From: Aulosira sp. ZfuVER01 | Lineage (GTDB): Bacteria > Cyanobacteriota > Cyanobacteriia > Cyanobacteriales > Nostocaceae | DNA length: 64,000 nt | Direction of reading: 5' to 3' | Assembly: GCA_034530615.2 (NCBI GenBank) | Contig: JAVRCV020000038.1 | Location: 1-64,000, forward strand | Part shown: one piece after another, positions 13,933-44,901 of the stretch | Layout: every line of letters starts with the position of its first letter | Numbering within the stretch: the first letter of the stretch is position 1 | Made by a program: the position numbers and the translations under genes | Notes under the pieces: generated by a model | What the model was told of the DNA's origin: nothing | The model's database searches: none | Seen by the model: only the letters and a program-made list of their open reading frames with translations

Positions 13933-15300
13933 ATGATGCGTTTGCCTGATATCCAAATTCTACACACAGCACTCAACTACCTGGCTCAAGTAATTCAGTG
14001 GCGCATGGCCTGTTACTTTGGCGATCGCAACCCAGATAGGGAACCAATGCCCGCTCCACCAGACGAATGGTTGAGTGCCGAGACTCCCCTACTCAACTTT
14101 ATTCGCAAGTACCAATTGGATAAGGCTGCCCAACTTACCCTACTCATGGGACTGGCCCCTTATCTACAACCTGACTTTTTCGATCGGCTGATCGCCGCCC
14201 AATTGCCCCAAGCTGGTGATTATCCAGAAATCGGTGGGTGGCGAGGAAAGACTCATCGCGGTTTTCTCCCGACTGGTGAAACGGTGCTGTTTGTTTTGGG
14301 TGGGAATCAGTTTAGCGATACTCCTTTGGATTCATTTCGTGAACGCCTGCACTTACAGCAACTTTTCAGCGAAAATCACCCCTTTGCCCGTGAGGGTGTA
14401 CTCTACCTCGAGCCGCCAGCAGAGGGTGAACCCCTGATGAGTGGCAAACTCGTCATGACTCAGGACTACATCGACCTGTTTATTCAGGGACACTTTTCTC
14501 GTCCCCATTTCAGTATGCGTTTTCCCGCCCAGCGCATCACTACGGAAATGGAGTGGCAAGACTTGGTTCTCAATGACCAAACCTTACAACAAATTCGCGA
14601 CTTAGAAGCCTGGATTACCTATGGCCCGACTATTCTTTATGAATGGGGCATGAAAAAGAAGCTCAAGCTAGGCTACCGGGCACTATTTTACGGCCCTCCT
14701 GGTACAGGCAAGACTTTGACAGCCAGCCTCTTAGGCAAATACACAGGCAAAGATGTTTACAAGGTAGACATCTCGATGATGGTGTCAAAATTTATTGGGG
14801 AAACGGAAAAAAATCTCGCTAACCTCTTCGCCAGAGCCGAAAGTAAAGATTGGATTCTCTTCTTCGATGAAGCTGATGCTCTGTTTGGTAAGCGCACCAA
14901 TGTCCGTGATGCTCATGATAAATACGCCAACCAGGAGGTAAGCTACTTACTACAGCGAGTAGAAAACTACGACGGGCTGGTGATTCTGTCCTCCAACTTC
15001 AAGAGCAATATTGACGAGGCCTTCATCCGCAGATTTCAATCAATTATTCAATTCCCCATGCCCAACACCAAAGAAAGGCTGCAACTGTGGCAGATGGCTT
15101 TTCCATCCCAGGTAAGGCTGGCTGAATCCGTAGACTTACCCCAACTTTCAGCTACCTATGAACTGACTGGTTCCGACATTATGAATGTGGTGCAGTACTC
15201 CTGCCTGCAAGCATTACAGCAAGGTGATACAGTCATTCATCAAGAGGATCTGCTTTACGCGATCAAGCGGGAATTTAGCAAATCCGGAAAGATGATGTAG
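13933..15300 (+). CDS. CIS AAA+ ATPase (Afp15-like)
   Basis: GPPGTGKT, FFDEADALFGKR, VSKFIGETEKNL, DAHDKYANQEVSYLLQR. Confidence 0.92.
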   Translation: MMRLPDIQILHTALNYLAQVIQWRMACYFGDRNPDREPMPAPPDEWLSAETPLLNFIRKYQLDKAAQLTLLMGLAPYLQPDFFDRLIAAQLPQAGDYPEIGGWRGKTHRGFLPTGETVLFVLGGNQFSDTPLDSFRERLHLQQLFSENHPFAREGVLYLEPPAEGEPLMSGKLVMTQDYIDLFIQGHFSRPHFSMRFPAQRITTEMEWQDLVLNDQTLQQIRDLEAWITYGPTILYEWGMKKKLKLGYRALFYGPPGTGKTLTASLLGKYTGKDVYKVDISMMVSKFIGETEKNLANLFARAESKDWILFFDEADALFGKRTNVRDAHDKYANQEVSYLLQRVENYDGLVILSSNFKSNIDEAFIRRFQSIIQFPMPNTKERLQLWQMAFPSQVRLAESVDLPQLSATYELTGSDIMNVVQYSCLQALQQGDTVIHQEDLLYAIKREFSKSGKMM

Positions 15301-15783
15301 ATGGGCATAGGTTATTTATGCTTTTTATTCCCTCTGACCGTTGACCTAAAAATAGAATTTTGCTATGCTTCTAAAGTTTTGGTTACAAAACTTAGCGAGT
15401 GAAAATACATAGAATACTAATAATTATTACATTCGATAAGAGAAAAGTCAGAGAAAAGATATTGTCTTAGTTGGGTAATAATACGGTTGTCGATAAGATT
15501 GCAAGCTAAATTTTTCTATATTTAACTAGTACAATCCCCAAATTAGGCTAAATTCGTCTAGAGTTCAAACAAGCTTGCAGACTAGGAAAAACCGATTCAA
15601 AAAATGCCCCAGTAACTAAATCACTTCGGAGCTTTGCGGCAAAAAAAAATTCATGTTGCAACGATCGCCTTGATATGGGCATTTTTGGAGACCAGTGCCC
15701 TAAGTGTTCTGTGTCACTATTACTTCTGCATTCATATAGATAAAACAATCTAGGCCTCTGTCTGATTCATTCACCGACTGATT

Positions 15784-16362
15784 ATGATATTTGATGCAAT
15801 GAGGTTGATACAGGTTGCTTTGCAGCGCTACATCCTAGAGATGGAGCCAGAACTTGGGCCTGGTCAAATTGTGCTGATAGATAATATTGGCATGGCCGAA
15901 GAACTCGGCGGGCCAAACAATCAGCTAAATGGCCATGTGGTGATGAGCTTGGTAAACCTGCAAGAAGAGGCTACCCTGAAAAATGCTAATCACTATCGTA
16001 TAGATAATGGGCGCACTGTTTACCAAAACCCTCCTGTAAGCCTCAACCTATTTATTCTTTTTTCCTCACTACACAATCAATACGAAACAGCCCTGAGACT
16101 GCTTTCGCGGGTAGTGGAGTTTTTTCAGTCGCAACAGGAAATCTCATTTACCTCTACGCCGGGAAATGGTAGTATCTCGCGCAATGTGAGGCTCATACCA
16201 GACCTTTATTCCCTTAGCTTCGAGCAACTTAACCAACTATGGGGTTCTTTAGGTGGTAAACAAGTGCCCTTCGTAATGTATCGTGCTCGTCTTGTAGCCA
16301 TAGAGGCACAAAAACGTCAGGGTGAAAGCGAAGTCATCGCTGGAGTCTCGATCAATGAGTGA
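15784..16362 (+). CDS. CIS cap/terminator protein (DUF4255, Afp16-like)
   Basis: SLVNLQEE..LKN, NPPVSLNL, LSFEQLNQLWGSLGGKQVPFVMY. Confidence 0.88.
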   Translation: MIFDAMRLIQVALQRYILEMEPELGPGQIVLIDNIGMAEELGGPNNQLNGHVVMSLVNLQEEATLKNANHYRIDNGRTVYQNPPVSLNLFILFSSLHNQYETALRLLSRVVEFFQSQQEISFTSTPGNGSISRNVRLIPDLYSLSFEQLNQLWGSLGGKQVPFVMYRARLVAIEAQKRQGESEVIAGVSINE

Positions 16363-16375
16363 GGGATAAGCACTG

Positions 16376-44100: not shown

Positions 44101-44477
44101 CTGGAAATGCAGGCCACATTAATGCACGGCATGTGATTGGTACGCCTGGTGTGATCAGTACACTAGCAGATCTACAGGCACGTGCTAATGGCAATCTAGC
44201 CTACCCTCCTTGCCCAGGCATAGCGAGTGCTTTTGCCAGTGCTGCTGCCAGCCAAACAGGAATAAATAATGCTATGCAAGCTGCTAACTGGCCTAATGTC
44301 AGGAGAGATATAATCCGAGGTCTAACCCATAATATAAATGTAAGGGTCGCCGTTGTTGGTCACGTTGCCAGAAATGGACACGCGATGAATAATGCACCAG
44401 GTGGGGTATTTTTGCAAATCACAGGGGCAAATGTACAAGGTGGCTTTTATGCTTTCCAAAGCTGGCCTGTAATATGA
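41118..44477 (+). CDS. DUF4157 (eCIS core) cargo protein with a C-terminal RNase-A-like toxin domain
   Basis: NNTGLPDNLKAGIENLSG..ALAYTQG..HLAHEAWHVVQQ..LEHEAD; C-terminal GHINARHV..ASAF..FYAFQSWP. Confidence 0.8.
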   Translation: MKTNENQKSTNHQPAKQKPFFGGSPEQAFFTTDRAGATPFFQLKTSSSSTLQAKSATDETEELNQSALQRMTAFAFESDINAKGVNTIQRKADTGSEPEEKEVVQRQVEEKEKPVQMKGNSQYSASASSSQGQQPNNTGLPDNLKAGIENLSGIAMDDVKVHYNSAKPPHLQALAYTQGTEIHISSGQEKHLAHEAWHVVQQKQGRVQPTTQAQGVGINDDTTLEHEADVMGDRAVSSPGNFSQKSVDFTPVARSVIQMYKCTSYYLIGIFNQNNFSGLINQIGRPAYDYFITLETTDFSPLIDAFLPQNPINNAAAQVAFLSPHAGDDTELRLAIKALQLANYDPGNAAPFYNFFAHYKAIGATELAQAENILTAQGNDIPKANYIYKYTHDAISSKLLAIAQQQLQTHGDDPVAAEQAMKPFNDFFAHYKAIGATALTQAENILTAQGNDISKANYIYKYTAISKRVLAVAQQQLQTHGDDPVAAEQAMVALAPYNYFGSVKTKVDVLATGKARGEIDQEKQAAADEKIDFETRYQQKIEQTIDNNIDRNLAKKKKEQFAELFPNVDTTISNDGTLRDNLNKARNAKIAMMAGREAQIEAQMPNRTATITSNVQNLLKPVYQVSEDDSVPDWCLNQAGQDLKVLKSCVEIVVAVNGNLGLIGKLAPLSIGNIRMLIGKLSIKQQGQLSGTDIVDLVDLLTPLNGTAINALVNILHPSLNSQGIDNLVLNLTPSNGTAIDAFIRQYVPQITPQQLADLVHRLRPLDIANINLLINLLNGLNLGQIYALTVAMTPGGSLIGNEILQFVTTLTSILNPLTAVQIQTLVLALEGLPGDQINTMVNQLIAMGINTGTNISARIQNMRGSLQVGGAKSTDVTTVDGERILSGTQIATRVGQVSAAGGVYAHLSYYPHSNINPTGRNEDLLWQDCDPAIIRHASETAADITVRQQMALNAIVHLGGVNRQIAQQVFQVNNGQQPRQMQNGAGEDNLSALAGNAGHINARHVIGTPGVISTLADLQARANGNLAYPPCPGIASAFASAAASQTGINNAMQAANWPNVRRDIIRGLTHNINVRVAVVGHVARNGHAMNNAPGGVFLQITGANVQGGFYAFQSWPVI

Positions 44478-44514
44478 TTTTTCTCATAAATAAATACAAA
44501 ATTAAAGGCTGAAA

Positions 44515-44901
44515 ATGGCACCAGAAGAAAGTTACATGGAGTATCTCCAAAAGGAACATAGGGAAAAACCATTAGAATTCTTCACCAAATTGCTGACAGA
44601 TATCCGCATGGGCAGAAGTGAAGAAGAAGCCATCCGGGAGTGGAAGCGGCTTTGTGAACAAGTTTCGTGGTATGCCGAAGATGCTATTCGCTGCCTAGAA
44701 ACTATCTTGGCAGACCCTCCTGCCAATTTAATAGAAATAATGCAAGAAAACGGTTGGATCTTGTTAGACCACGGATCTCAGTCTTATACGCCGATCAAAG
44801 CTTATCGACAGCAATATGTAGAGTGGCTGGAGAAGTGGGTCAATCAATGTCGGGATGTCTATTTTACTTACCATCCGCCAGTGCGATCGCCAATTGATTA
44901 G
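44515..44901 (+). CDS. Putative immunity protein
   Basis: Small acidic, Trp-rich ORF with an RBS, starting 37 bp after the toxin-like gene. Confidence 0.6.
   Translation: MAPEESYMEYLQKEHREKPLEFFTKLLTDIRMGRSEEEAIREWKRLCEQVSWYAEDAIRCLETILADPPANLIEIMQENGWILLDHGSQSYTPIKAYRQQYVEWLEKWVNQCRDVYFTYHPPVRSPID

Follow-up and report, generated by a model that had tools for sequence, protein, structure and literature searches.

A probable thylakoid-anchored contractile injection system of Aulosira sp. ZfuVER01, with a predicted double particle length and a likely RNase A-like toxin as payload

The stretch of DNA analysed here (the window: 64,000 nucleotides of Aulosira sp. ZfuVER01, GenBank assembly GCA_034530615.2, contig JAVRCV020000038.1, positions 1 to 64,000) carries at 13933-44901 a contractile injection system (CIS) that we read as an intact orthologue of the thylakoid CIS (tCIS) of Anabaena sp. 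PCC 7120. On this reading, to which we give a probability of about 0.65, the locus specifies a syringe of a predicted ~220 nm that is likely anchored in thylakoids and likely loaded with an RNase A-like toxin, with an immunity protein likely encoded next door. The core machine has been known since 2022; the system described here departs from it in length, sheath, crown tail and payload. The window makes up most of contig C38 of a genome of 8.03 Mb (83 contigs, 99.99% complete), and the host genome carries hetR (E 1e-78), in keeping with the filamentous cyanobacteria that harbour the tCIS type.

The tCIS of Anabaena sp. PCC 7120 (all3327-all3313; Weiss et al. 2022, PMC8894136; PDB 7B5H, 7B5I) is described in the available text of that paper as a cluster of 15 open reading frames (ORFs) plus two DUF4157 genes. 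The locus of genome G745 was used as a stand-in for this reference because nine of the 13 chain lengths given in the supplement of PMC8894136 are those of its proteins. AlgoCIS of Algoriphagus machipongonensis (PMC8894135; PDB 7AEB, 7ADZ, 9WT0), a free extracellular CIS (eCIS) that is never membrane-anchored, provided a second comparison. Eighteen uninterrupted plus-strand ORFs occupy 13933-44901, and the Pfam families AAA, Pvc16_N, sheath, gp19 tube-like (two), CIS_tube, Phage_base_V/GPD, PAAR, gp25, Baseplate_J, CIS_TMP and eCIS_core (DUF4157) were found among them; all CIS parts named in a preliminary description of this DNA were recovered intact and co-oriented. Intergenic gaps range from -11 to 172 bp from the cap gene through the immunity gene, and the ATPase gene lies 483 bp upstream of the cap gene. 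The parts are as follows (lengths in amino acids, aa; hydrophobicity on the Kyte-Doolittle scale, KD).

13085-13612, minus strand: 175-aa membrane protein with one strong hydrophobic helix (KD 3.04 at residue 70), divergent from the ATPase gene, candidate tCIS accessory
13933-15300, plus strand: Cis15/Afp15-type AAA+ ATPase, likely cargo loader (PF00004; intact Walker motifs, A at 254 and B at 308)
15784-16362, plus strand: Cis16A cap (Pvc16_N; 77% to the G745 orthologue)
16376-17575, plus strand: Cis16B cap adaptor (7B5I All3326 547 bits, AlgoCIS 23)
17602-19551, plus strand: Cis2 sheath; a 194-aa insert, 41% of it Ala, lies close to the N-terminus (7B5H All3325 627 bits, AlgoCIS 472)
19610-20041, plus strand: Cis1 tube (PF06841; 86% to G745)
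20136-20669, plus strand: Cis5 tube initiator (PF06841; 82% to G745)
20702-20866, plus strand: Cis6 spike plug, 54 aa (DUF5908; 80% to G745)
20870-21577, plus strand: Cis7 initiator with a LysM-like C-terminus (CIS_tube; 73% to G745)
21574-23346, plus strand: Cis8 VgrG-like spike (Phage_base_V, Phage_GPD; 75% to G745)
23418-23720, plus strand: Cis10 PAAR tip (PF05488; 83% to G745)
23710-24237, plus strand: Cis9 gp25-like protein (PF04965; 75% to G745)
24410-28036, plus strand: Cis11 baseplate/cage (7B5H All3317 1412 bits, AlgoCIS 478)
28132-28620, plus strand: Cis13 short fibre, 162 aa, with a C-terminal transmembrane helix (7B5H All3316 191 bits, E 1.3e-55)
28671-32381, plus strand: Cis12 baseplate with a shortened extension (7B5H All3315 1563 bits, AlgoCIS 385)
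32374-37869, plus strand: Cis19 crown carrying 87-aa repeats, six tandem copies plus a diverged one (7B5H All3314 1198 bits, AlgoCIS 149)
38020-41070, plus strand: Cis14 tape measure, 1016 aa, with three internal modules 51-63% alike (CIS_TMP)
41118-44477, plus strand: cargo, 1119 aa, with leader, DUF4157 (140-205), middle region and predicted RNase A-like tip (~998-1119) (Pfam, fold model)
44515-44901, plus strand: likely cognate immunity protein, 128 aa, all-helical, net acidic (gene pairing, complex model)

Fifteen of these genes (15784-41070) correspond one-to-one and in order to the full PCC 7120 set (Cis16A-16B-2-1-5-6-7-8-10-9-11-13-12-19-14), and their products are 49-86% identical to the G745 counterparts. 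The match in gene order to the PCC 7120 locus, stated in the preliminary description, holds for these fifteen genes; the ATPase lies outside the published PCC 7120 cluster. Two labels were adjusted: LysM gave no Pfam match and is present only as the LysM-like C-terminus of Cis7, read by eye, and the protein first called an Ig-repeat protein is there but is an orthologue of the Cis19 crown. When seven of the CIS proteins were compared with PDB sequences, 7B5H or 7B5I was the top match for all six that had one, the tape measure Cis14 being without a PDB match; scores to AlgoCIS were far lower, and Cis13 had no AlgoCIS chain match in the PDB. The window and the PCC 7120 tCIS have in common a two-protein cap, plug, cage, crown, Cis12 extension, Cis13 transmembrane helix and a DUF4157 cargo adjoining the tape measure. 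In the window, unlike PCC 7120, the ATPase and the small membrane gene head the locus, and the cargo is co-oriented, is followed by an immunity gene and has a different tip. Cap adaptor, plug, cage, AAA+ loader, tape-measure ruler and a cargo built of leader, DUF4157 and variable tip are shared with AlgoCIS, whose Ig-type fibre Alg19 is related to the crown.

Of the 389 genomes of the family, 23 (that of the host among them) have a full-length Cis13 match, the nearest records being those of Nostoc sp. 106C (84%) and Nostoc sp. T09 (83%). Loci were fetched from 20 of the 22 other genomes, two on short contigs being left out. Structural order was identical wherever the stretch of a relative was complete, except that a cargo gene stands between crown and tape measure in three. 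As the preliminary description had it, capsid, terminase and TssJLM families were without a match among the 38 window proteins (Pfam scan). TssJ (PF12790) and IcmF/TssM (PF06761) gave no match genome-wide in a search that was positive in an E. coli control and did not cover ClpV; nor did Terminase_6N, the only terminase family searched at this scale. A canonical type VI secretion system was rejected on the failure to find a TssJ/TssM membrane complex in a 99.99% complete genome, and a prophage on the capsid and terminase results. Promoter and terminator scans gave no signal above chance, and no RNA holder came up for the stretch from sheath to spike, which speaks neither way. By every feature testable from sequence, the cluster belongs to the tCIS kind; homology, gene order and membrane-anchor helix fit the earlier proposal of a tCIS relative with lineage-specific decorations and an identifiable payload.

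The case for anchoring comes from Cis13 and Cis12. Residues 10-160 of Cis13 align with All3316, and no other CIS chain in the PDB was matched; its C-terminal helix reaches KD 2.11 at residue 136, compared with 2.12 in G745, and lies between 1.95 and 2.68 in 21 of 21 sequences. In PCC 7120, deletion of the Cis13 transmembrane helix frees the particles (PMC8894136). In the Cis12 extension (reference 610-1100), 363 of 491 residues are aligned at 51% identity, and a putative amphipathic helix at span 872-907 aligns gap-free, with a moment of 0.56 against 0.57 in the reference; this span is kept in the window and is a gap in 6 of 20 relatives. A possible DUF1508 repeat array in the extension had a single weak match (E 0.011) and is not claimed. 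Nine loci chosen by a partial Cis13 match, from Nostocales and other families (L058-L066), were used as a control set. This sister class of CIS (long Cis13 fibres, short Cis12, no crown match) offers a natural non-anchored control: Cis13 fibres have 413-966 aa with KD at most 1.52, Cis12 has 764-797 aa in seven of the nine loci, and no crown match was found in the fetched stretches. In a sheath tree of 26 rows, whose backbone is unresolved and whose rows include no characterised free eCIS, six sister-class sheaths are grouped on a branch of 0.94 (91/100) and the window groups with G422 and G423 (97/99). The sheath phylogeny by which the preliminary description proposed to check the assignment thus sets the window apart from the helix-less sister class, and tree and PDB scores both group it with tCIS. 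Combined, these results make thylakoid anchoring of the particles likely.

The tape measure is nearly twice as long as that of the reference (1016 aa against 560 aa). With 119 nm per 560 aa (PCC 7120) or the 0.229 nm per residue measured for the AlgoCIS tape measure (bioRxiv 10.64898/2026.05.27.728243), a particle length of 216-233 nm is predicted, about twice the 119 nm of PCC 7120. The 194-residue sheath insert replaces 19 aa at the same place in the reference, and a 21-bp repeat array is present at 17810-18219 in the sheath gene; we infer a helical hairpin projecting from each sheath subunit. Of 18 relatives, 7 have an insert there as well (54-226 aa), and insert length correlates with that of the tape measure (rho 0.66 over 18 rows, kin not being independent). 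The crown has 1831 aa, against 1476 aa in the reference, and its repeats are encoded by a 261-bp array of 6.0 copies (35534-37088); they are labelled Ig-like from their pattern and weak matches only. Crowns made of Ig chains are a catalogued fibre class (PMC12923769).

The cargo is made of a hydrophilic leader, a DUF4157 domain with the motif HEAWH, a long middle region and a C-terminal tip. DUF4157 is an effector mark (PMC11297309), and loading of the AlgoCIS cargo requires such a leader together with an AAA+ ATPase (bioRxiv 10.64898/2026.05.27.728243). Residues 1-235 match the cargo genes of relatives (up to 69%); the rest of the cargo and the downstream immunity gene had no match in any of the 20 related loci. 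The whole body resembles distant DUF4157 proteins (P0001: 54% across 721 residues), which suggests that a module was grafted onto a native leader. In a model of residues 864-1119 (pLDDT 82.7), the predicted tip has an RNase A-like fold. Its match is 5E3E, the CdiA-CT toxin of Yersinia kristensenii with its immunity protein CdiI (PMC5435912), a bacterial pair of the RNase A superfamily: Foldseek gave E 4.2e-4 and VIA Z 11.1, with a root-mean-square deviation (rmsd) of 2.4 over 109 residues, the next match having Z 4.7. Predicted fold, Arg-His motif, second Arg and C-terminal position are as in CdiA-CT, and in both cases a small helical immunity protein is encoded downstream; unlike CdiA-CT/CdiI, the window tip has an extra helical region upstream and sits on a DUF4157 cargo, and the window pair has no PF18431 or CdiI Pfam match. 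A profile of the toxin found the host genome only among 401 genomes of the phylum, no plasmid matches and two short partial matches in viral sequences.

In single-sequence searches the immunity ORF appeared an orphan (1 of 61 genomes in one search, only itself in the other), and Pfam, PDB-profile and Atlas searches returned no named family for it. When metagenomes were scanned with the toxin profile, two loci were found (L055/L056), near-identical to each other and from one lineage; in both, a 116-aa homologue of the immunity protein (39%, E 1e-31) directly follows a toxin homologue. This is direct evidence of co-inheritance in one lineage, and toxin and partner clusters with equal longest contigs point indirectly to two more; an additional search gave a further immunity homologue at 57%. 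The modelled toxin-partner complex scored 0.92 against 0.16 for the best control; of 157 solved pairs 116 come up to the mark, and of 215 mismatched ones only 2 do. At least 94% of contacts are common to the runs, and the partner has a pLDDT of at least 87. For the toxin-immunity cassette that the preliminary description placed at the end of the locus there are now three lines of computational support: the match in fold, the conserved pairing of the genes and the model of the complex. The assignment of the cargo tip and the 128-aa protein as a toxin-immunity pair is well supported.

The position occupied by this pair is variable. One of the two closest relatives (G422, L017:10091-17365) encodes in the same slot a 2248-aa cargo with a barnase-type RNase tip and then barstar (E 4e-15); in G428 an endonuclease tip is followed by a weak SUKH-type match, and tips of other relatives gave weak EndoU, HNH and deaminase matches. 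The G745 cargo (L034:8244-12266, a 1340-aa DUF4157 protein) shows at its tip a weak APOBEC-like deaminase match (E 7e-5, below cut-off). Other eCIS operons are known to carry toxin-immunity pairs, which have been interpreted as antibacterial (Geller et al. 2021, PMC8213781). In the EAT5-type pairs a toxin and its cognate immunity gene likewise end the CIS operon; the toxin class differs from that of the window, and the available text describes no RNase A-like or tCIS pair. Our literature searches found no paper describing a tCIS RNase-immunity pair and, on all3315/all3316, the original tCIS paper only.

At the other end of the locus, the comparison concerns the loading ATPase and its divergent neighbour. 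In the available text of the tCIS paper the cell for the ATPase is left blank and no ATPase is mentioned, and a possible further thylakoid partner of Cis12 is raised as an open point (PMC8894136). G745 has an ATPase 74% identical to that of the window, together with the membrane gene, at L068:7071-9120, ~200 kb from the structural operon; by sequence, it is a candidate for the missing entry. The 175-aa protein had no significant Pfam, NCBIfam or PDB match, and literature searches found no paper on it. Close copies (E at most 3.3e-49) are present in 25 of the 389 family genomes, including all 23 with full-length Cis13 and none of nine sister-class genomes of the family; the two extra genomes are G444, where the CIS lies at a contig end, and G440, which has no tube match. 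The gene adjoins that of the ATPase (cis15) in 23 of the 25, including loci where the ATPase is at the far end, and of the remaining copies one is at a contig end and one alone. Weaker copies number 23, and the 12 examined all belong to gene clusters of a different type of CIS. The idea that the 175-aa family is tied to CIS wherever it occurs was rejected, since none of nine distant homologues outside the family lies near CIS genes; the copy in G440 further weakens such specificity, and two distant homologues that were checked lie between genes for flavin (FAD)- and iron-sulphur (Fe-S)-oxidoreductases. Because its distant homologues are unlinked to CIS, the 175-aa family looks recruited to CIS loci in this cyanobacterial family, and its co-occurrence with tCIS is overstated because kin share gene content.

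The 175-aa protein is likely an accessory of the tCIS machine and may be a thylakoid docking partner, an ATPase tether or a lysis factor. A parallel is CisA of Streptomyces (PMC12237407), a single-pass membrane protein that is linked genetically to an intracellular CIS and is missing when the particles are purified; CisA has 468 aa with a periplasmic domain, and the likeness is functional only. A broader proposal, which we put forward tentatively and hold to be rather doubtful as a whole, is that loading ATPase and single-pass membrane protein form an overlooked two-gene accessory unit, in which the membrane protein is the thylakoid partner or pore component that the anchor still lacks, that the swappable nuclease-immunity slot makes the machine an anti-bacterial weapon of filamentous cyanobacteria, and that the window holds a double-length version with helical sheath bristles.

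From the 49-86% identity, tube, sheath, cap, plug, spike, cage and crown would assemble as in 7B5H/7B5I. As in the AlgoCIS experiments, the tape measure would set the length and the AAA+ ATPase would use the hydrophilic leader to thread the cargo into the tube. The Cis13 helices and the Cis12 extension, which hold the particle in an outward-facing thylakoid pore in PCC 7120, would presumably do so here. Lysis under stress would expose particles on ghost cells, where the crown fibres with their repeats would attach to a target and firing of the sheath would follow. Both exposure on ghost cells and contraction were shown in PCC 7120 (PMC8894136). Inside a non-kin cell, most probably a bacterial one, the RNase tip would then break down RNA, and the immunity protein would shield the producer and its clones.

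Several observations weigh against this reading. Firstly, many killing assays found no target of the PCC 7120 CIS (PMC8894136). An anchored machine might act on its producer, much as cytoplasmic CIS of Streptomyces kill theirs: its firing under stress would rupture the cytoplasmic membrane and shape the ghost cells, with the cargo secondary. Such a role would agree with the tendency of CIS-minus ghost cells of PCC 7120 to retain their membrane, with the failure to find an external target (PMC8894136) and with a dedicated membrane accessory recalling Streptomyces CisA. We consider it unlikely, however, as an immunity protein encoded alongside would neutralise the RNase within the producer, and the divergence of tips among close relatives is the pattern of competition; the producer-directed and competitive roles could also coexist. 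A nucleic-acid-acting family was matched in only 5 of the 18 relatives' tips scanned (one above the curated cut-off), leaving 13 without such a match.

Secondly, catalysis by the tip is not assured. The Y. kristensenii toxin needs His175, Arg186, Thr276 and Tyr278 (PMC5435912), and these positions were mapped by motif and alignment ends. His175 and Arg186 map to His1005 and Arg1022, whereas Gln1114 occupies the place of Thr276 and Trp1116 that of the essential Tyr278. A particle anchored and loaded as proposed, with a tip that is a drifted or non-catalytic RNase A-like domain, would explain these two substitutions, the low identity to 5E3E (16-18%) and the failure of the RNAse_A_bac family (PF18431), to which only a 0.87 language-model lead points, to match the tip even at E 10. 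Against this, Arg1004-His1005 and Arg1022 are invariant in nine of nine aligned sequences, the homologues being 30-66% identical; Trp is found at the Tyr278 place in seven of eight homologues among the matches listed and is thus a family trait rather than decay; and a partner gene is retained alongside the toxin. An inactive tip is improbable, and we hold with moderate confidence that the modelled tip is an active RNase, activity being likely. The partner itself invites caution: its fold match is weak (5E3E_A first in VIA, Z 5.9, rmsd 3.7, 87 aligned), its model had no significant Foldseek match (E 4.1), and the result for the complex may reflect memory of the solved 5E3E pair.

Thirdly, the Cis12 extension lacks 128 of the 491 reference residues (~130 aa shorter than in PCC 7120); the crown tail has no membrane helix (KD 0.46), such a helix being present in 7 of 19 relatives; and the crown is not diagnostic of tCIS because the free AlgoCIS has a homologue, Alg19. 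Together with the long particle and the bulky sheath insert, the shorter extension and helix-less tail would suit a lineage released freely like AlgoCIS or anchored in the cytoplasmic membrane instead of the thylakoid, and a 2026 survey remarks that tCIS-like systems may not all be thylakoid-anchored (PMC12923769). Yet the Cis13 helix equals the proven anchor in hydrophobicity and the helix-less sister class is a separate branch, which makes either variant very improbable. A silent or decaying cluster is scarcely credible, with 18 of 18 frames open, the ATPase motifs intact and structural genes 77-98% identical to those of the two nearest relatives.

Further genes of the window were also noted. 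Downstream of the immunity gene lie a highly diverged P450-like protein (45409-46812, plus strand; PF00067 E 0.06, CYP130 E 0.09; a Cys motif seen by eye close to the C-terminus; single copy) and, adjoining it, a patatin-like TIGR03607/DUF3376 protein (46999-50109, plus strand) with a low GC content at third codon positions (GC3 0.28). The two may form a lipid-modifying pair; neither was matched in those related loci that were searched, and they were rejected as machine parts. Two ABC transporters (one with a peptidase C39 domain), an HlyD protein and a cyclic nucleotide (cNMP)-binding protein at 53027-61641 (minus strand) make up a bacteriocin-type export module. Upstream, a 1166-aa WD40-repeat protein with paralogues on other contigs (7844-11344, plus strand) is followed by a low-complexity heptad-repeat ORF with several look-alikes in the genome (11498-11794, plus strand), which may be a repeat element and not a gene. 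Elsewhere in the genome, scattered genes of at least one further, distantly related CIS type were seen on C49 (~248-258 kb), C68 (~10-12 kb), C33 (~10.7-11.8 kb) and C62 (51850), along with a second ATPase and a 1716-aa DUF4157 protein.

The comparison draws attention to the loading ATPase, a blank entry in the tCIS paper, and to its companion membrane protein. Given their tape measures of 560-1181 aa and sheath inserts of differing size, natural variants of the tCIS would be useful for studies of length and capacity control. The structure of tCIS is solved, and the payload and the ATPase-membrane unit make questions about its target and effector testable; with a predicted payload chemistry and a candidate antidote, this extends to the question of self versus rival. 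If the reading is true, an RNase toxin carried with its antidote would point to rival bacteria as the target of these machines.

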